Assembly: GCF_003231495.1 (NCBI RefSeq)
Contig: NZ_PQWO01000010.1
Coordinates: 120,001-152,000 of the forward strand
Direction: 5' to 3'
Length of the DNA: 32,000 nt
Origin: Acaryochloris thomasi RCC1774
Lineage (GTDB): Bacteria; Cyanobacteriota; Cyanobacteriia; Thermosynechococcales; Thermosynechococcaceae
The notes under the pieces were generated by a model, which ran no database searches, had not been told where the DNA came from, and saw only the letters and a program-made list of their open reading frames with translations. The position numbers were made by a program, and so were the translations under genes. Below are positions 5,762 through 24,391 of the stretch, in pieces (the first letter of the stretch is position 1; every line of letters starts with the position of its first letter).

Positions 5762-6790
5762 ATGCAACAAATCACCATAACCCAACCCGACGACTGGCAT
5801 CTACATGTACGTGATGGTGAAGTGCTGAAGGCGGTTTTGCCGCACACGGTGCGTCAGTTCTCGCGCGCTATCATCATGCCAAATTTGAAGCCCCCCGTGC
5901 GCTCGGTAGAAGACGCGGCGGCCTATCGAGATCGGATTATCGCAGCGATTCCGGCTGGCAGACAGTTTGAGCCTTTGATGACTCTCTATCTCACCGATAA
6001 CACTAGCCCTGAAGATATTATCGCGGCCAAAGCGTCCCAGTTTGTTAAGGCAGTCAAGTACTATCCAGCCGGGGCTACGACCAATTCAGATTTTGGGGTA
6101 ACGGATATTCGGAGATGCGATCGCATCTTCAAAACAATGCAGGAGGTAGACATGCCTCTATTGCTCCACGGGGAAGTAACCGATCAAGATATTGATGTGT
6201 TCGATCGTGAGAAAGTCTTTATCGAGAAATATTTGATTCCTCTCAAACAGCGATTTCCTAACCTGCGGATCGTGCTGGAGCACATCACCACCTCAGATGC
6301 GGTGGAGTTTGTCCTGGCTGCGGACAACGTGGCTGCAACAATCACACCACAACACCTATTGTTTAACCGCAACGTTCTGTTTAAAGGGGGAATTCGACCC
6401 CATTTTTATTGCTTGCCCATATTAAAGGCTGAAGAGCATCGTCAAGCAATTTTGCAAGCTGCGACTTCTGGCAGTCCTAAGTTTTTTCTGGGGACTGATA
6501 GTGCCCCTCATGCTCGCAACAGCAAAGAAACGTCCTGTGGCTGTGCGGGTTGCTTTTCAGCTCTACATGCACTGGAGCTATACGCAGAAGCTTTTGAGCG
6601 TGCTGATGCACTGGATAAACTTGAAGCTTTCGCCAGCTTCTATGGGCCAGATTTTTATCAGCTCCCACGCAATAATGAACAGGTTACTTTGACCAAATCG
6701 ACTTGGCGTATTCCTGATGAAGTGCCGCTTATTAAATCTGAACTCGTGCCCTTGTGGGCAGGGCATGAGATAACGTGGAAAATGGTTTGA
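5762..6790 (+). CDS. pyrC: Dihydroorotase, class II (E. coli type)
   Basis: [11 protein letters not shown] supplies the metal-binding HxH. The motif [10 protein letters not shown] is present, and the length of 342 aa is typical of homodimeric-type PyrC. Confidence 0.92.
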
Positions 6791-7194
6791 TACTGATTCA
6801 GAACGGCTCACGGTAACATCGGCACCAAACAACTGAGTCTGCACTTGCTTAGCTCGTTAAGAGCAAACAACTTTCTACGGTGCAAAGAATTTTTCTTGAG
6901 AAGGATAACGGCTCGGCCATCAGGGGCGCGAGCAAAAACATTTAAAGAGTAACGAGTTGCTTCAGCCGAGCGTCCTTTGCATGGGCTGGTTAGACACAAC
7001 TAGCACTGATAGCAGACTCTTTTGGATCATAACTGACCCACCCAAAACAAGCCCACTTCGCAATAGAAATTCAAAGCGTAACGCGCCTCAACCGAAACAC
7101 TCAGCAATTGAAACTCAGAGAATTAAAGCGAAGCCACCGAATGCTTGAAAGCGAGACTGGGATTTGGATGAAGGTTTAGGAGTCTAACTACTTA

Positions 7195-7361
7195 TTATAC
7201 GGAATTAATCCTGATATACAGTCCCAATAGGTTTTTATATGGATTGTATTCCACATATCATGTCACCACAGGTGTTTATACGGAAAATTTTCTGTATATC
7301 ATCCCGATTTCAGGATCTTATACGGAAAAAATCCGTATATATCCTCGTGTTCTTTAGGATC
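7195..7361. repeat. Four head-to-tail units of 40-44 bp, iteron-like, each opening with a TATACGGA-N5-6-TCYGTATA dyad
   Basis: Units start at 7195, 7235, 7276 and 7318. The best dyad is TATACGGAaaaaaTCCGTATA at 7319-7339. Units 3 and 4 both end in AGGATC. Confidence 0.75.
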
Positions 7362-7414
7362 GGTTTTTCTATGATTGATATCGAGTCGATTATCAATTGG
7401 AAGTCCTGCTCCTT

Positions 7415-8386
7415 ATGGAAGCTCGCCCAAAAAAGCTGCTTGACCAAGTTCGCGACCGACTTCGCGTCAAACACTATGCCTATAAAACGGAAGAGTGCTA
7501 CGTCAACTGGATTCGTCGCTTTATTCTCTTTCACAACAAGCAGCACCCTAATATGATGGGGCCTGTTGAAGTCGAAGCCTTTCTAACTCACCTAGCCGTA
7601 CATGACCATGTGGCGGCGTCCACTCAAAATCAGGCGCTGAGTGCCTTGCTCTTTCTCTATCGAGATGTTCTACATCGAGATCTAGGAGAAAACATTAATG
7701 CCATTCGAGCCAAGCGTTCCCAACATTTACCAACAGTGCTAACGCCAGACGAGGCTCTTGCTGTCATTGCTCAACTCTCAGGCGTTTATCGATTGGTTGC
7801 TCAACTACTGTACGGTAGCGGTCTACGATTAAAAGAGGCTTTGAGGCTAAGGGTTAAAGACCTAGATTTTTCTCAGAACCAGATCTCAGTTAGAGAGGCA
7901 AAAGGGAGCAAAAGTCGGTTCACTATGCTACCCGTCTGTATCGCAGATCCTCTGAAAGAACATTTACAAGGTGTGAAACGCTTGCATCAGCAAGATCTCG
8001 AACAAGGATATGGTTCTGTTTATTTACCCTATGCGCTAGAACGCAAATACCCCGATGCAGATCGTCAATGGATCTGGCAATACGTTTTCCCTTCGAGTCA
8101 GCGCTCAATCGATCCTCGCAGTCAAATGACTCGCCGACACCATCTCAATGAGAGTAGTCAGCAAAAAGCTGTCAAACAGGCAGCTCGAAAAACAGGCATC
8201 AATAAGCGAATCAGTTGCCATACCTTTCGACACAGCTTTGCAACTCATTTGCTCCAAAATAACTATGACATTCGTACTGTTCAAGAATTGCTCGGTCACA
8301 AGGATGTCAAAACGACTATGATTTATACCCATGTTCTCAACAAAGGAGGAAAAGGTGTTCTCAGTCCTCTCGATGCCTGTGCTTAG
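7415..8386 (+). CDS. intI: Integron-type tyrosine recombinase (IntI family), apparently intact
   Basis: The N-terminus reads [33 protein letters not shown]. The IntI-specific insert [21 protein letters not shown]...DPRS...RRHH is present. The catalytic motifs [12 protein letters not shown] and [29 protein letters not shown] are also present. The first ATG is at 7415, and the ORF track starts at an upstream TTG at 7397. Confidence 0.87.
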
Positions 8387-8388
8387 CA

Positions 8389-8516
8389 TTCAGAGAGACA
8401 GCAGAAATATCGGTCATCTGAGCGTTCCAGATGATGTGCTTGAGGAGCTGTTGGGGCGTTTGCGATCGCAACGCATGCAAGTGTCCTTGGAAGCGCAAGA
8501 CAGCCAAAAAATATCG
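8389..8516 (-). pseudogene. Decayed, start-less copy of the 3' end of the neighbouring rarA-fusion gene
   Basis: The minus-strand reading ..[29 protein letters not shown] aligns to the true C-terminus ..VRSQMTQQLLNQTITWKTQIAYISAFHSA. Segment 8402-8472 matches 9500-9571 at about 70-75 percent identity by hand alignment. The two share the 16-mer TTGAGGAGCTGTTGGG. A TGA at 8517-8519 bounds the frame upstream. Confidence 0.6.
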
Positions 8517-8538
8517 TCACAAGCAGAGCAAGGTGAAC

Positions 8539-8730
8539 CTACTCAACCAGGCAGTCAGCTTGAACAACCCGTTTGATATCTGCAGTCGTTAATCCATCAG
8601 CTTGAATACAGCTTGGCCTTTGAGTCAGTTCTAGCAAAACCTGTGTTTTCGTTTCTCCAGGCTCCAACGCATCAAATAACGCCCAGAGTGCTTCTTCCGG
8701 TAACTCAGTCAAATTAAGAGTGGCTGTCAT
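8539..8730 (-). CDS. Hypothetical 63-aa protein
   Basis: This is an ATG-initiated ORF only, and I recognise no motif. It lies between the remnant and parE. Confidence 0.35.
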   Translation of the reverse strand: MTATLNLTELPEEALWALFDALEPGETKTQVLLELTQRPSCIQADGLTTADIKRVVQADCLVE

Positions 8731-8828
8731 TGTTATCTTCCTCTTGAGGTTGATAAGTAAAGATTCGGCGAACGCTTCTTTGATTGCAATGATGGAACAT
8801 GAGAATCAGCTAAGTAAAACAATCAAAA

Positions 8829-9128
8829 CTAATTATCAAATAGAGCTGATAAGTCACGATAACCACTGACGACCCTCAAGATCTCAATATCTTCGCCGAT
8901 TGGCATGTATAGAATCAGATAACGTTCAAGGGAAAGGCTGCGCAAGTTAGGCAAAATTTCATTCCGCTGCCGCCCCAGGCTTGGGAATTGAGTGATTTTT
9001 ATAAACTTGTCATTCAACTTTGCTAAAAACTGTTCGGCTCGGTCTAGATTGGACTGCTGTGCGATGTAATCTGCAATCTGCTCAATATCTTTAACGGCAG
9101 GCTCAGTTAGGCGAAATTGAGGAGTCAC
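8829..9128 (-). CDS. parE: ParE/RelE-superfamily toxin (type II TA)
   Basis: The protein is 99 aa. It reads FRLTEPAVKDIEQIADYI...FPSLGRQRNEILPNLRSLSLERYLILY...IEILRVVSGYRDLSALF. It overlaps the upstream antitoxin gene by 4 bp. Confidence 0.85.
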   Translation of the reverse strand: MTPQFRLTEPAVKDIEQIADYIAQQSNLDRAEQFLAKLNDKFIKITQFPSLGRQRNEILPNLRSLSLERYLILYMPIGEDIEILRVVSGYRDLSALFDN

Positions 9129-9394
9129 GTGTTACTTGACTCACGGCGGTCTCGTAAGTTAGCTCGAACCTGAGACATAGCGGTAGGACCATCTATGGTC
9201 TGCCCCTGCTGAGATGCTTCCCAACCGATCATGGCATCTTGCTGTAGCTCACCTAAACGCCCTTGATAGATATCTTCCTGCTGTTGTAGCAGTTCAACTG
9301 CAGCGAGGATCAGATCCTCAACACTTTGATATTTATCACTGTTCAGTTGGCGCTGAACGAAAGCTTCAATCTCTGGAGGAAAGGCAAGTTGCAT
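9125..9394 (-). CDS. parD: ParD-family antitoxin
   Basis: FPPEIEAFVQRQLNSDKYQSVEDLILAAVELLQQQE is a typical ParD N-terminus. The ATG is at 9394, and the track starts one codon earlier at a TTG. The gene sits immediately upstream of parE. Confidence 0.8.
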   Translation of the reverse strand: MQLAFPPEIEAFVQRQLNSDKYQSVEDLILAAVELLQQQEDIYQGRLGELQQDAMIGWEASQQGQTIDGPTAMSQVRANLRDRRESSNT

Positions 9395-9441
9395 CAATAC
9401 GACTCGGGTAAACGGGCTATTTTTTGATCCAGTAAAGTACT

Positions 9442-9456
9442 TAGCTATTATAGCTA
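9442..9456 (-). promoter_or_regulatory. Candidate parDE promoter/operator: the dyad TAGCTA-TAA-TAGCTA with a perfect TATAAT -10 box inside it
   Basis: The minus strand reads gaTAGCTATAATAGCTAag, about 50 bp upstream of the parD ATG. TA operons are commonly autoregulated at palindromes that overlap the promoter. Confidence 0.4.
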
Positions 9457-9482
9457 TCCCGTAACTGTTGAGAAGTAGCTCA

Positions 9483-11666
9483 TCATGCTGAATGAAAAGC
9501 CGAAATGTAGGCGATCTGAGTCTTCCAGGTGATGGTTTGGTTGAGGAGCTGTTGGGTCATTTGAGATCGCACCTCTCCCACTTCCCCCTCCGACAAATGC
9601 ACCAACAAGCGGTCCCGATAAGACAACCGCTCCGATGTCGAAGAAAACCACCGCTCCAAAAGCTGCGCTGTCACGTATAAATCAAAGCTACTTTCTTCTA
9701 AAATTACTTCTACCTGTAGCCCCAACTCCTCAAAAAGCTGCTCTACCCCCCCAGGATTTGCAGCCAAATCTCCCACATCATAAAGACATTCCTCCGCCGC
9801 CACCCAGCGATCGTAGAGTCCCGGCTCATTGGGCAAATCCACCAAGTCATACAGTCGCTGACTCTGACTGGGAACGTTCTCAGCCAAAATGATTCTTCCC
9901 GTTGGCTGTAGTAAAGAGACTAACTGCGCCGCAATCTCTGACTGCTGCTCATGCCCCATCAACACATTGCGCCCCACAATCGCATCAAAGGGCTGATCCT
10001 GAAGTGTCTTTTGCAGATCGAGCAGTGCCGTTTGTACAACGATGGGCCGCTGCAGCTCGGGCAACTTTGTGGCCTGGGTCTTCAAATCCTGCGCCGCTTG
10101 TAGATCTGCAACACAAGCATAAACGCTGCCTTCTGGCACTTGGCGCAGGGCTTCCCAAGTTAGGAGTCCGGTTCTGGCCTGCAGGTCTAACACCACGTGA
10201 TGTCGCTGAAGTTTTGTTAGAGAGAAAATGCGATCGCGTATCTCCCCTGCATGGTTTCCAGCCTGCCCAATTGTTCGCTGCAGCCACCGATCCTGAGCAT
10301 GATTGACGGGGCTGTAGCTCACCACATCCGCCATCGACTCACCACTATCAAGCTGAGCCTCCCGCCTTCGTGAAACCTGCGCTGCAATTTCAGCTTCCCA
10401 ACCTTGATCAGAGGGCTGATAAAAAACCTGCCCCTGGAGGTTATTGGGCAAATATTGCTGGGCGACCCAGTGATCGCGGTAGGCATGGGGATATTTATAG
10501 TTGGCACCGTGGCCGAACTGTTTGCTGTCCCGACTCCCATCCTTCAGCGGATTGGGCACCTCCATTTCCCGTTCTTTCTCCACCGCAGAAAGCGCATCAA
10601 AGTAGCCCAAGACGCTATTAGATTTTGGGGCTGCAGCTAAATACAAAGCCGCCTGAGCCAAAGGATATTGGCCCTCCGGCAAACCCACGCGATCAAAGGC
10701 TTGAGCACAGGCCATCACCACCCCCACCGCCTGCGGATCGGCCAGTCCCACATCTTCGCTAGCAAAAATCACCATCCGGCGAAAGATAAATCGCGGATCT
10801 TCTCCGGCATAGACCATCCGCGCTAGCCAGTAGATCGCTGCGTCGGGGTCAGACCCGCGCATACTTTTGATGAAGGCGCTGATCGTGTCGAAGTGAGCGT
10901 CGCCTTCTTTGTCGTACAAAATTGCCCGTCGTTGTATAGATGCCTCTGCGATCGCAAGTGTAATTGCGATCGTACCTGTCACGTCTGGCTCCGTCGTCTC
11001 CACCGCTAGCTCCAGCGCATTCAGCAAAGCACGAGCATCGCCATTGGCAATATTGATCAAATGCACCAGGGCTTCAGGTTCCAGCTCAATCGTTTTTTTG
11101 CCGTACCCCTGCTCTTGATCCGCCAAAGCCCGATGCACAACCTGCCTTAGGTCGTCCGGAGCCAGTGGCTTGAGCTGGAAAATACGAGAGCGACTAACTA
11201 AAGCTTTATTGACCTCAAAGTAAGGATTCTCCGTCGTTGCCCCAATCAAAATCAGCGTTCCGTTTTCGACCCAGGGCAGCAGAGCATCTTGCTGAGCCTT
11301 GTTAAACCGGTGGACCTCATCTACGAAAAGAATCGTGCGTTGACTGCGCTGCCCTCGCAGGTGTTGCGCGGTATCAACGGCTTCACGAATAGCTTTAACG
11401 CCAGCCAGCACCGCGTTGATCGAAATGAAGTGAGCCAGCGTCGTGTTGGCAATAATCCGGGCCAGCGTCGTTTTCCCGGTGCCAGGGGGGCCATAAAAGA
11501 TTAGGGATGAAAGCTGATCGGCTTGAATCGCCCGCCGCAATAACCGACCTGGCCCCACAATGGCAGACTGCCCTACAAATTCATCTAGTGTATGCGGGCG
11601 CAATCGCGCGGCAAGGGGGGCTTCAGATTCAATGAGCTGCTGGCGCTGGTGATCAAACAAATCCAT
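9483..11666 (-). CDS. rarA: RarA/MgsA-type AAA+ ATPase fused to a C-terminal class-I methyltransferase-like domain
   Basis: The N-terminal ~440 aa carry LRPHTLDEFVGQ, the Walker A motif GPPGTGKTT, the Walker B motif ILFVDEVHRFNK, and the MgsA C-terminal region. The C-terminal ~280 aa carry VVLDLQARTGLLT and AIVGRNVL, which suggest a Rossmann-type methyltransferase fold. Confidence 0.85.
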   Translation of the reverse strand: MDLFDHQRQQLIESEAPLAARLRPHTLDEFVGQSAIVGPGRLLRRAIQADQLSSLIFYGPPGTGKTTLARIIANTTLAHFISINAVLAGVKAIREAVDTAQHLRGQRSQRTILFVDEVHRFNKAQQDALLPWVENGTLILIGATTENPYFEVNKALVSRSRIFQLKPLAPDDLRQVVHRALADQEQGYGKKTIELEPEALVHLINIANGDARALLNALELAVETTEPDVTGTIAITLAIAEASIQRRAILYDKEGDAHFDTISAFIKSMRGSDPDAAIYWLARMVYAGEDPRFIFRRMVIFASEDVGLADPQAVGVVMACAQAFDRVGLPEGQYPLAQAALYLAAAPKSNSVLGYFDALSAVEKEREMEVPNPLKDGSRDSKQFGHGANYKYPHAYRDHWVAQQYLPNNLQGQVFYQPSDQGWEAEIAAQVSRRREAQLDSGESMADVVSYSPVNHAQDRWLQRTIGQAGNHAGEIRDRIFSLTKLQRHHVVLDLQARTGLLTWEALRQVPEGSVYACVADLQAAQDLKTQATKLPELQRPIVVQTALLDLQKTLQDQPFDAIVGRNVLMGHEQQSEIAAQLVSLLQPTGRIILAENVPSQSQRLYDLVDLPNEPGLYDRWVAAEECLYDVGDLAANPGGVEQLFEELGLQVEVILEESSFDLYVTAQLLERWFSSTSERLSYRDRLLVHLSEGEVGEVRSQMTQQLLNQTITWKTQIAYISAFHSA

Positions 11667-17455: not shown

Positions 17456-17504
17456 AAAAAGCAAAAAGCCCTTGGGCGTCTTTCCTTGTTTCGACTCCAA
17501 GAGC
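17456..17504 (-). terminator. Intrinsic terminator of sRNA copy B
   Basis: The stem is 8+3 bp (GCTCTTGG/CCAAGGGC with an inner GTC/GAC). It is followed by TTTTTGCTTTTT on the minus strand. Confidence 0.6.
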
Positions 17505-17530
17505 TGTTTTGCTAATCACTCCTCACATTC
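17456..17530 (-). ncRNA. Small RNA candidate, copy B (Yfr2-family-like)
   Basis: On the minus strand there is a -10-like TACATT (17539-17534). It is followed by AUGUGAGGAGUGAU, then the hairpin GCUCUUGGAGUC-GAAACAAGGAAA-GACGCCCAAGGGC (17504-17468), then UUUUUGCUUUUU. Confidence 0.5.
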
Positions 17531-17615
17531 ACAAATGTAGTGGTTGCCACTACGCTTATGCGGTTACTTAGTGACACTTCGTTGAGTGTCCACCGTTGAA
17601 AGCTGAATTTTGCAC

Positions 17616-17660
17616 AAAAAAAAGCTCTCGGGCGTCTTTCCTTGTTTCGACTCCAAGAGC
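17616..17660 (-). terminator. Intrinsic terminator of sRNA copy A
   Basis: The stem is GCTCTTGG/CCGAGAGC with an inner GTC/GAC. It is followed by T8 on the minus strand. Relative to copy B, the substitutions in the stem preserve base pairing. Confidence 0.65.
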
Positions 17661-17685
17661 TTCTTTATAAATCACTCCTCACACC
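17616..17685 (-). ncRNA. Small RNA candidate, copy A (Yfr2-family-like)
   Basis: On the minus strand there is a -10-like TAGATT (17695-17690). It is followed by GGUGUGAGGAGUGAU, which is the exact complement of ACUCCUCACAC. Next comes the hairpin GCUCUUGGAGUC-GAAACAAGGAAA-GACGCCCGAGAGC (17660-17624), then U8. Confidence 0.5.
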
Positions 17686-17778
17686 TAATAATCTACAGGG
17701 GAGTAGGGAGAAGGTTGCGATCGCAAGTGCCACTTTCTGAACTGTCAGCCCAGAGCTGATCCCACCCTCACACCTTAT

Positions 17779-22927: not shown

Positions 22928-24391
22928 CTACTTAGCCTTAGATTTTTTTGGTTGCGATGGTTTATTTTTCACCTTTGGCTTTGCCGATGACCGCACCTTC
23001 TGATCTGACTGGGTTACTTTTTTGCGTTGCGCTTTGGGTTTTGTTGCTTTCGTTACTTTAGCTTTTGGCTTTGCTTGTTTCAGAGTATTTTGTGCCGGTT
23101 TGGTCTTAGTTCGGCGCTTCATGGTCGACTTTGTAGGCTGCCGCACGTTCTGAGCTGACTGGGTTGTTTTTTTGCGTTGCGCTTTTGGCTTTGTTGCTTT
23201 CGTTGCTTTAGCTTTTGGCTTTGCTTGTTGCGAAATATTTTGTGCCGGTTTGGCTTTAGCCCGGCGCTTCATGATCGGCTTTGCAAGTTGCTGACCGTTC
23301 TGAGCTGGCTGGGGCTCTTTTTTGCGTTGAGCCTTGGTTCTTGTTGTTTTCAGCGCTTTAGCTTTTGGCTTTGCTTGCCGCAGAATATTTCGCGCTGATT
23401 TAGCTTTGGTCCGGCGCTTCACGGTCGGCTTTGCTGTCTTTGCCGTTTTGCCTTTAGGCTTCTCTAGTTCAGTCTCGTTCATATCAAGACTAGGATAAGA
23501 ACGCATTGGTGTCCGGTAAGCATTCTTTGGGCGTACAAATCTGTGTCTTACCCATTGATGTCTAAGAGAAAGCCACAAATGTCTTTGTTGAAAGGATGGT
23601 TGCTGAACAACTTGGAGCCCCTCCTTATATCGAAAAATGGGAATCCCAAGATTAACCCATTGATCAGGAACACTCCCATCTTCGTTCGTTTCTTTGCGCC
23701 CATGAATAGCAATCACATGGCCATACCGATTGAAAACTGGGCCGCCACTCATGCCACTACGCGTAAAGTTGCTGTAGGCAACACTATATCCATCTCGTCC
23801 TGCTTTAGGAAAAAGGGTAGTAATTTTACCTGTCGTGATAAAAAATACAGGGTTTTGAATGTTGAGTCCAGGCGTTGGATAGCCAGCGACGTGAACTTCA
23901 TCAGCTTCTCGAACTTGCTCAAATTCACCTAAGGGAGCAACATCATAATTTTCGTCACTTTCGAACTGAAATCTTGCCAAGTCAAGACCTGGAAATCTTT
24001 GAACATTTTGGACTGGGTATTGAAACTCATCTTTAATTTTGACAGTAAATGGGGCATCACTCTCTAGTACATGAGCTGCCGTCAGAACTGCATATGTATT
24101 GCCTTTCTTCGCAATAATCACTCCAGAGGCAAAGTGCTCGGGATCCTGACTATTTTGAATGAAAGCTGTAGTATTTCTGGCAATTTCGTGAACTTCTTCT
24201 GCTCTTTTCTGGTCAATAGCTTCTTGGTTGGTTAGGTAAACTTTTTCTTCCTTAACCTTTTCCTTTTCTGTAACTTGACCAAAGGCTGGATAGTTGGTAG
24301 CAAAGGGCTGAACCAGGGTAACCATGGCTCCAGTTAACCCTGCCATCAATGTGTATAGAAATTTCATAAGCGCACTCATCGCTGAATACAT
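22928..24391 (-). CDS. Secreted trypsin-like (S1/S1C-type) serine protease with a long lysine-rich repeated C-terminal tail
   Basis: There is a hydrophobic N-terminus. LTAAHVL supplies the His and GMSGGPVF the Ser. The last ~190 aa are K/R/A/Q/P-rich with 50-aa periodicity. Confidence 0.8.
   Translation of the reverse strand: MYSAMSALMKFLYTLMAGLTGAMVTLVQPFATNYPAFGQVTEKEKVKEEKVYLTNQEAIDQKRAEEVHEIARNTTAFIQNSQDPEHFASGVIIAKKGNTYAVLTAAHVLESDAPFTVKIKDEFQYPVQNVQRFPGLDLARFQFESDENYDVAPLGEFEQVREADEVHVAGYPTPGLNIQNPVFFITTGKITTLFPKAGRDGYSVAYSNFTRSGMSGGPVFNRYGHVIAIHGRKETNEDGSVPDQWVNLGIPIFRYKEGLQVVQQPSFQQRHLWLSLRHQWVRHRFVRPKNAYRTPMRSYPSLDMNETELEKPKGKTAKTAKPTVKRRTKAKSARNILRQAKPKAKALKTTRTKAQRKKEPQPAQNGQQLAKPIMKRRAKAKPAQNISQQAKPKAKATKATKPKAQRKKTTQSAQNVRQPTKSTMKRRTKTKPAQNTLKQAKPKAKVTKATKPKAQRKKVTQSDQKVRSSAKPKVKNKPSQPKKSKAK
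23009..23458 (-). repeat. Three in-frame 150-bp tandem repeats encoding the polycationic tail
   Basis: Units start at 23009, 23159 and 23309 on the plus strand, each beginning ctgggtt/ctggggc. The encoded units are AKP.(V/M)KRR.KAK.A.NI..QAKPKAK..K.T..KAQRKK. Confidence 0.88.

Follow-up and report, generated by a model that had tools for sequence, protein, structure and literature searches.

What purpose is served by the four similar inverted repeats that stand immediately upstream of an integron integrase gene (intI) in the window, that is, in the whole 32-kb stretch of DNA analysed here? The initial annotation described this region as four head-to-tail units, each opening with a dyad, and offered three readings of them: an attI-like platform, a repressor operator array, or replicon-type iterons. 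Inspection of the sequence confirmed unit starts at 7195, 7235, 7276 and 7318 (the preceding T included) and the periods of 40, 41 and 42 bp. The left arm of the units is TATACGGA at 7196, 7277 and 7319, and TATATGGA in unit 2 at 7236. All four dyads are present, and dyad 4 has the perfect 8-bp arms ascribed to it (TATACGGA-N5-TCCGTATA); dyad 1, however, needs two inserted bases if it is to be drawn as it was originally. The elements of the array and its surroundings are the following.

7195 to 7217, no strand: dyad 1, TTATACGGA-ATTAA-TCCTGATAT, centred at -208.5 from the intI ATG; its right arm is degenerate.
7235 to 7258, no strand: dyad 2, TTATATGGA-TTGTAT-TCCACATAT, centred at -168, on the family peak; its right arm is degenerate.
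7276 to 7299, no strand: dyad 3, TTATACGGA-AAATTT-TCTGTATAT, centred at -127; a 22-bp palindrome with one G/T mismatch.
7296 to 7321, no strand: secondary palindrome between dyads 3 and 4, ATATCATCC-N8-GGATCTTAT.
7318 to 7340, no strand: dyad 4, TTATACGGA-AAAAA-TCCGTATAT, centred at -85.5; the best-formed copy.
7374 to 7397, no strand: separate dyad ATTGATA-N10-TATCAAT, overlying a possible intI promoter and 5' leader.

Two smaller details of the earlier description were also found in place. Units 3 and 4 both end with AGGATC (7312-7317 and 7356-7361), and the separate dyad lies at 7374-7397, ending 18 nt 5' of the ATG at 7415. In the closest relative (locus L001, IntI 90% identical), the right arm of dyad 4 and the next 30 nt are retained, and only part of the separate dyad is; other palindromes occupy the same position in relatives. 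This dyad is lineage-specific and lies outside the conserved array. The gaps between dyads in many relatives are filled by a palindrome of the CCCC...GGGG type that is similar to the one between dyads 3 and 4.

The exact sequence TATACGGA occurs four times in the 32-kb window, each time inside 7196-7339. The generic form of the dyad is TTAnnnnGA-N5/6-TCnnnnTAA. When matches in the window were accepted at 9 or more of the 10 fixed positions, five occurrences were found, four of them in the array. In simulated sequence of the local composition (34% G+C, 5000 runs), a stretch of 220 bp contained 0.05 dyads on average, and no run reached four.

The genes around the array are listed below.

5762 to 6790, plus strand: pyrC, the left neighbour.
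7415 to 8386, plus strand: intI, an intact integron integrase gene with a 323-aa product.
Right of intI: an ORF of 63 aa.
8829 to 9397, minus strand: parE/parD, right of intI.
9483 to 11666, minus strand: a RarA/MgsA-methyltransferase fusion gene, the right neighbour.

The product of intI matches the integron integrase model TIGR02249 with 477 bits, against a cut-off of 265, and aligns over its full length to VchIntIA (PDB 2A3V; 329 bits). As read from this alignment, the catalytic R, K, H, R, H and Y positions and the IntI-specific insertion are present. The protein is 53% identical to IntI1, and its closest relatives are cyanobacterial. The parDE pair was considered as a cassette and rejected: neither flank carries an attC, and the pair has inserted into the neighbouring gene at its 3' end. 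A blastn comparison of a 251-bp region with plasmids gave no match. An Rfam scan of the window at the gathering threshold returned just two Cyano-1 RNAs, both far from the array. These RNAs and the cyanobacterial relatives of IntI show that the host belongs to the cyanobacteria.

We compared the window to 80 loci from cyanobacteria and Chloroflexi whose IntI is 65-73% identical to that of the window. Generic dyads are concentrated 48-fold 5' of intI in these loci (167 in 30.5 kb, against 60 in the other 521 kb). Of these 167 upstream dyads, 147 have their arms 5 or 6 nt apart. About 104 centre-to-centre intervals could be measured; 71 of them span 40-42 bp, and a second peak falls at 82-84. 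The centres themselves cluster near -210, -170, -130 and -90, to be compared with -208.5, -168, -127 and -85.5 in the window, and at least three strict dyads are found in 34 of the 65 loci that have at least 300 bp of upstream sequence. The upstream regions of related intI genes therefore carry an array at the same position and in the same phase in dozens of loci. Short motifs from the dyads behave likewise: TATACGG is 55x enriched in the 300 bp 5' of intI across related loci, where it is present in 31 of them, and GTTATAC is 23x enriched.

The half-site consensus from these dyads is TTAKRCRGA. The outer TTA and the inner GA are nearly invariant, and the middle four bases depend on the lineage (TTATACGGA, TTAGACGGA, TTAGGTGGA, TTATCCAGA and TTAGCCCGA are the variants). 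The TATACGGA half-site is common to cyanobacterial and Chloroflexi loci. Apart from intI, no gene is conserved next to the arrays; the largest further family is found in 10 of 81 loci. The same architecture is present in a cultured strain, on plasmid pB of Kovacikia minuta CCNUW1 (NZ_CP083584.1).

Inspection of the sequence to the left of dyad 1, outside the coordinates originally noted, revealed an integron-type recombination site, which has two further parts.

7182 to 7188, minus strand: attI R box and crossover, GTCTAAC, which is GTTAGAC on the cassette strand; cleavage point G7188/T7187.
7189 to 7194, no strand: central spacer of the simple site, TACTTA, 6 nt.

The R box is located at -231 from the intI start and 6 nt left of dyad 1, and GTTAGAC fits GTTRRRY, the R-box consensus of integrons. 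The L box is supplied by the left arm of dyad 1 (7195-7203). The result is a simple site with two inversely oriented core-like boxes, GTCTAAC-N6-TTATAC, spaced as in attI1. At least 36 of the related loci have an R box ahead of dyad 1, and the combination [CT]TAAC-spacer-dyad is mostly located 213-240 nt 5' of the intI start.

The initial annotation had likened the short inverted arms to the core sites of tyrosine recombinases. This holds for the simple site next to dyad 1, but not for the dyads themselves. The R box, 6-nt spacer and L arm resemble a core of the dif/loxP type in that TAA and TTA point toward the central region. The four dyads differ from such a core, since their TTA points outward, and they are not candidate crossover sites. 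Because their polarity is the reverse of that of a core site, we regard the dyads as accessory sites.

On the far side of the R box, the window contains an attC and a cassette.

6903 to 6995, plus strand (the model strand, intI-sense): attC of a single cassette, covariance-model match of 27.7 bits, E 2.8e-5 (a rough value).
6909 to 7187, minus strand: gene cassette, the first and only one, 279 bp, beginning with TTAGAC where it joins attI and ending on the G of the R' box of the attC.

The covariance model was home-made from 17 attC sites found in relatives (22 pairs, 15 with compensatory changes). The match at 6903-6995 is its single significant full-length match in the 32-kb window; the runner-up has E 0.44, and the E-values of this model are rough. 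Among the 80 loci the model found 51 distinct sites, all located 5' of intI and all on the intI-sense strand, with which the attC of the window agrees. A heuristic hairpin scan also found canonical attC sites 5' of intI in relatives. The same type of scan, which demands AAC...GTT ends and a stable DNA hairpin, found nothing near intI in the window; it missed the attC because the linear R boxes pair at only 5 of 7 positions.

On the cassette (minus) strand, R'' of this attC is GTCTAAC (the reverse complement of 6989-6995), and the linear R' is GTTATCC (the reverse complement of 6903-6909). The latter is complementary to R'' at only 5 of 7 positions. In contrast, the ends of the cassette, G6909 and TTAGAC (7187-7182), rebuild GTTAGAC, which is complementary to its own R'' at 7 of 7. 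The cassette ends thus rebuild a perfect R', and 7182-7188 is thereby independently marked as an attI x attC junction. The minus strand of the 279-bp cassette contains no ORF of more than 33 aa, and the cassette is ORF-less.

An integron-type recombinase, at least one attC adjoining intI and the G|TT boundary of a GTTRRRY box are all present, and the locus reads as a complete integron in the classical layout: pyrC, attC, cassette, attI (R box and dyads), intI. The attC has several non-canonical pairs and seems somewhat decayed. Given this decay and the two degenerate right arms among the dyads, the copy in the window may be inactive.

When metagenomes were scanned for the perfect dyad TTATACGGA-N5/6-TCCGTATAA, at least 120 loci were found. 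A strict regular expression for [CT]TAAC left many of these matches unclassified, and the histogram of offsets was the informative test. AAC is found exactly 6 nt outside the dyad in 75 of the 120 listed matches (63%), whereas any other offset accounts for 13 at most. Five contigs have one and the same sequence up to and including ...TCCGTATAA-TACATA-GTT and show no relation past that point. The identity breaks directly after GTT, so different cassettes have been joined at that G|TT in nature.

The intI gene adjoins the dyad in 26 of the 120 listed loci. In 31 the contig ends less than 450 bp from the dyad, and many of these contigs begin inside the array. Between 25 and 31 of the 120 listed loci, about a quarter by a classification based on orientation, have an R box and one or more dyads but lack intI over at least the following 1.3 kb. 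One of these (L117) retains about 3.5 dyads without intI; another (L106) has one dyad, located between genes for a tRNA synthetase and a nitroreductase. These loci fit the interpretation as orphan attI remnants that persisted after loss of intI. A handful of the listed loci (e.g., L083 and L112) look like chance matches in A+T-rich DNA.

Five loci (L123, L192, L092, L151 and L139) contain integrons in an inverted layout. Their order is the intI stop, about 30 nt, one half-site, 17 nt, a full dyad, 6 nt, the R box and the cassettes. No dyads were found 5' of intI in L123, L192 and L092, the three loci whose upstream sequence is long enough to tell. Both layouts retain the R box and dyad 1, which can therefore be regarded as the constant core of this attI. 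The inverted integrons manage with 1.5 dyads; dyads 2-4 would thus not be essential for recombination and may serve another purpose.

As a control from class 1 we used attI1 on plasmid p2 of Acinetobacter baumannii AB5075 (NZ_CP144561.1; locus L203). In the same orientation it reads GCCTAAC-TTTGTT-TTAGGGCGA-ctgccct-GCTGCGTAAC...CCATAAC. Like the array in the window, attI1 is situated between intI and the first cassette, and the two share a crossover at G|TT within GTTRRRY. The geometry of the simple site, AAC-N6-TTA, is also the same (GCCTAAC-TTTGTT-TTAGGGC in attI1, GTCTAAC-TACTTA-TTATACG in the window). DR1 of attI1 is inverted relative to L; the two together form one dyad, AAC-N6-TTAGGGCGA-N7-GCTGCGTAA, like dyad 1 of the window. 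Both sites contain 7-mers that resemble core sites, GTTATGG in DR2 of attI1 and TTATACGG or TTATATGG in the arms of the window. The R box and dyad 1 of the window thus appear to correspond site for site to R, L and DR1 of attI1, with dyads 2-4 extending the design.

The two differ in number and order. In attI1 there are four sites in about 65 bp, whereas the window has nine in about 160 bp (the R box and eight arms). The fourth site of attI1, DR2, is a direct repeat, and nothing in attI1 is phased; in the window all accessory sites are paired across gaps of 5-6 nt (7 nt in attI1) and repeat every 40-42 bp. The attI of the window is therefore not of the attI1 type, because it has, in place of two direct repeats, four inverted pairs of accessory sites in a 41-bp phase. 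Experiments on the binding of IntI1 to the attI1 sites reportedly go back to Collis 1998, Gravel 1998 and Partridge 2000.

The chromosomal sedentary integrons, with attIA of Vibrio cholerae and most environmental attI, have a simple site beside intI, as does the window. The R, L, DR1 and DR2 sites of attI1 are described as sites bound by IntI1, and DR1 and DR2 have been proposed to act as enhancers or topological filters (PMC3146285, PMC8946536). In these two sources, accessory sites are described only for attI1 (DR1/DR2) and a few environmental look-alikes (PMC3146285, PMC8946536); attIA and most environmental attI are reported to be without accessory repeats (PMC8946536, PMC3146285). Unlike attIA, the attI family with dyad arrays has an unusually large and ordered accessory set.

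Outside integrons, Tn3/gamma-delta res, the arm-type sites of lambda att, and the Xer sites cer and psi are cases in which a crossover site is flanked by several binding sites that are not cleaved. These sites build a defined synaptic architecture or a topological filter, and res consists of several dyads with differing spacers. The likeness to the window is one of function only, since these systems use different enzyme families or host accessory proteins.

What the dyads are as molecules bears on the choice between the explanations. Among 126 distinct dyads, the complementarity between the arms at the four variable positions is only 48%. The mismatches are balanced between 62 of the G.T type and 70 of the A.C type, with no strand bias, and most of them cannot pair. 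Pairing is therefore not under selection, and each arm is best described as a protein half-site in its own right, on double-stranded DNA. These numbers speak against hairpins in single-stranded DNA or RNA, be they folded substrates like attC or a structured intI leader. The region does fold as single-stranded DNA at -29.4 kcal/mol, against -16.8 for shuffled sequence (z = -4.0), and integrases of the IntI family recognise folded attC DNA; however, a good fold is expected of any palindromic repeat, and no Rfam family was found in 6700-9600 even at E up to 1. We consider this explanation very improbable. Hardly any credence attaches to replicon-type iterons or to a generic repeat scattered over the genome, for instance a MITE or the site of a global regulator. 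The repeats are short, phased, head-to-tail and located in an A+T-rich stretch, as iterons would be, but the neighbourhood contains no replication gene (it consists of pyrC, intI, parDE and the RarA/MgsA-type gene). The initial annotation had pointed to dispersal over many unrelated loci as the sign of a generic repeat; what we found instead is that exact TATACGGA is confined to the array in the window, that the dyads follow intI across phyla with the 48-fold concentration given above, and that they are fused to an R box in at least 63% of the 120 listed metagenomic matches. The iteron reading is rejected on gene context and on this concentration.

The operator reading is more serious, though we still find it unlikely as the main role of the dyads. 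According to it, a repressor, either IntI or a host factor, controls divergent promoters of intI and the cassettes through the array, and recombination needs the R box and dyad 1 only. The array does occupy the whole space between intI and the first cassette, its arms contain hexamers like a -10 box, and GTATAAT is 29x enriched 5' of intI in related loci. The 1.5 dyads at the attI of the inverted integrons also show that the extra ones are dispensable for integration. Promoter-like matches (TTTATA-16-TATCAT) overlie dyads 2 and 3; however, the number of such matches, 6, is not above the 4.0 +/- 1.9 of shuffled sequence. No conserved regulator gene is found nearby, a half-site common to two phyla argues against a host factor, and the window contains no cyanobacterial LexA box (RGTACNNNDGTWCB) anywhere; among the relatives, a strict match to this box within 100 bp 5' of intI was found in only 2 of 75. 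Read on the cassette strand, the left arm of dyad 1 gives TATAAT 6 nt ahead of the R box; no consensus promoter that could be the outward cassette promoter Pc was called on that strand. The inverted integrons have no dyads 5' of intI, and control of intI does not need them there. The dyads accompany attI rather than the intI promoter, which weakens the operator as the primary role; regulation may be a secondary function of the array.

We therefore return to attI, for which the initial annotation had suggested a platform 5' of intI. A true integron integrase, a conserved phased array, an R box at a fixed distance of 6 nt, natural exchange of cassettes and an attC on the far side all support it. 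In our judgement 7182-7340 is likely to be the attI of a chromosomal integron in the classical divergent layout, composed of a simple site and four accessory dyads that are probably bound by IntI. The arm motif TTAKRC matches positions 2-7 of GTTRRRY. IntI is the most economical candidate for the binding protein because the arrays have no partner gene, the half-site crosses phyla, it resembles a core site, and the arms have the character of protein half-sites; IntI thus probably binds the dyads as accessory sites.

The attI reading would work as follows. Cassettes would join attI on the minus strand, where GTTAGAC is cut between G7188 and T7187. The R box, the 6-nt spacer and the left arm of dyad 1 would form a dif-like simple site, and IntI would occupy its R and L boxes and exchange strands with a folded attC. 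The other seven arms would be extra half-sites resembling core sites (TTAKRCRGA), belonging to four dyads on one face of the helix at a distance of about 41 bp, or four turns. IntI most likely holds these seven arms without cleaving them, as IntI1 does on DR1/DR2 of attI1. Several protomers would be kept beside the crossover in this manner, and the DNA would be shaped, bent or looped for recombination with the folded attC. The 41-bp phase would set the dyads on one face and so allow cooperative contacts that retain IntI at attI. Occupancy of the arms probably also modulates transcription in both directions (from Pc and PintI), since the TATA-rich arms occupy the stretch that separates intI from the cassettes; this is the weakest step of the mechanism.

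We infer the identity of IntI as the dyad-binding protein, the higher-order complex and any effect on promoters from sequence comparison. Besides the decay of this copy and the dispensability of dyads 2-4, two further points stand against the mechanism. Pairing of IntI protomers across a gap of 5-6 bp in dyads of reversed polarity is hard to picture, and the palindromic spacers between the dyads do not follow from the attI model. A bolder version, which we put forward tentatively and would not bet on, is that the array nucleates a large ordered complex of IntI and DNA, with up to nine protomers over about 160 bp (four dimers on one face and the simple site). Such a complex might wrap or loop attI, act as a filter for topology or strand selection in attI x attC recombination, and set the expression of intI and of the first cassettes. 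We know of no attI intasome of this kind described for integrons.

As a kind of site, attI is already known. What appears to be new here is the architecture of three to five phased inverted dyads across an integrase clade from cyanobacteria and Chloroflexi, to which the reduced form with 1.5 dyads in the inverted integrons also seems to belong. A literature search on cyanobacterial attI found no description of it, and the motif strings matched only unrelated primers.

Outside classes 1-3, attI "cannot be searched for", and in most integrons the sequence of this site is unknown (IntegronFinder paper, PMC4889954). The composite AAC-N6-TTAKRCRGA-N5/6-TCYGYMTAA, repeating its dyads every 41 bp, would mark attI for an integrase clade that spans cyanobacteria and Chloroflexi. 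With this signature, empty platforms, complete integrons and orphan attI remnants could be separated from one another, and cassette junctions could be placed to the base. The R, L, DR1 and DR2 sites of attI1 may be the minimal form of a broader design based on dyads, and the long-open role of the accessory attI sites would thereby become directly testable.

A complete integron of the window type is present in a cultured cyanobacterium, Kovacikia minuta CCNUW1, where it is carried on a 58.5-kb plasmid:

NZ_CP083584.1 (plasmid pB), 28024-36983: integron locus L202

The integrase of this locus is 69% identical to the window IntI. About 4.5 dyads accompany the R box GCTAAC in this integron. It has two attC sites, and a DNA cytosine methyltransferase gene is located between intI and the nearer one.

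Among the metagenome contigs, two further arrangements were recovered:

L123, L192, L092, L151, L139: integrons with the inverted layout (attI downstream of intI)
L106 1900-1935; L117 375-520; L089, L114, L120, L156, and others: orphan attI sites

In the inverted integrons, the attI site follows the stop codon of intI and consists of only 1.5 dyads, then the R box. Their integrases are 53-63% identical to the window IntI in the four of five loci where this is measurable (L139 provides a short C-terminal piece only). A CCCTTAC heptamer repeat occurs upstream of intI in L092 and L192. The orphan sites, found in several metagenome loci, retain an R box and between one and 3.5 dyads, and no gene for an integrase lies within at least 1.3 kb of them; they adjoin housekeeping genes, such as those for tRNA synthetases, and represent about a quarter of the perfect-dyad matches listed from the metagenome.

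Two sequences recur beside intI or the R box in relatives:

L019 about 2560-2620, L044, L062: structured sequence (...GGAAGGACTTTCAGGAGTCCTTCCAACTCCCCCGAACGACTTCGAGTCGCGCG-CCTAAC), immediately beyond the R box
L006 5236-5484 plus nine more loci: ORF family of about 82 aa (MFVDIAQGAVASTL...), downstream of intI

The former, shared by three different genomes, is strongly structured and opens the first cassette; it may represent either a structured RNA or a cassette that has been conserved. Of 81 loci, 10 have a member of the small-ORF family shortly after intI, and the window has none.

In the window, these features lie downstream of intI:

about 8476-9490: inserted segment of about 1.07 kb, with a 63-aa ORF and parE/parD
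8539-8730, minus strand: the 63-aa ORF
9483-11666, minus strand: RarA/MgsA AAA+ ATPase gene, encoding one 727-aa protein

The RarA/MgsA-methyltransferase gene has its 3' end (9490-9575) duplicated, over about 75-90 bp and at about 75-80% identity, directly after the intI stop codon (8386-8475). Because this 3' end is duplicated after intI, and because the gene immediately follows intI in the closest relative (L001), the parE/parD segment is concluded to be an insertion into the 3' end of the gene. No attC flanks the segment. The C-terminal part of the 727-aa protein has a weak match to Methyltransf_12 (29.3 bits, just under the Pfam cut-off of 30); an ATPase of this type and a methyltransferase-like C-terminus in one protein would be an unusual fusion.

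Farther downstream, the window contains the Cyano-1 RNA (RF01701) twice in tandem, with both copies above the gathering score of 41, and a repeat-bearing ORF:

17457-17532 and 17614-17688, minus strand: Cyano-1 RNA, 47 and 51 bits
22928-24391, minus strand: 487-aa ORF
22991-23434: tandem repeat inside this ORF, three 150-bp copies, 83% identity

Close to the intI start, the window and its relatives carry different palindromes:

7370-7375: possible -10 element, TATGAT
L031, L037, L043, L079, L202 3965-3989: examples of the ATGTACTAT...GTACAT-type palindrome

In the window, the dyad ATTGATA-N10-TATCAAT (7374-7397) overlies the possible -10 element and the intI leader. It is partially retained in the 90%-identical relative (TTGGTATCA...TGATCAA), and the conserved element at that position in other loci differs from it. 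Within the zone from 75 to 8 nt before the intI start, 12-13 of 76 loci of relatives have the ATGTACTAT...GTACAT-type palindrome, at a distance of about 40 nt from intI; the window lacks it. TGTACT and TAGTAC are 10-16-fold enriched in this zone in relatives, and two loci (L073 and L079) contain a strict match to the cyanobacterial LexA box. The palindrome in these relatives may be an SOS-type operator.
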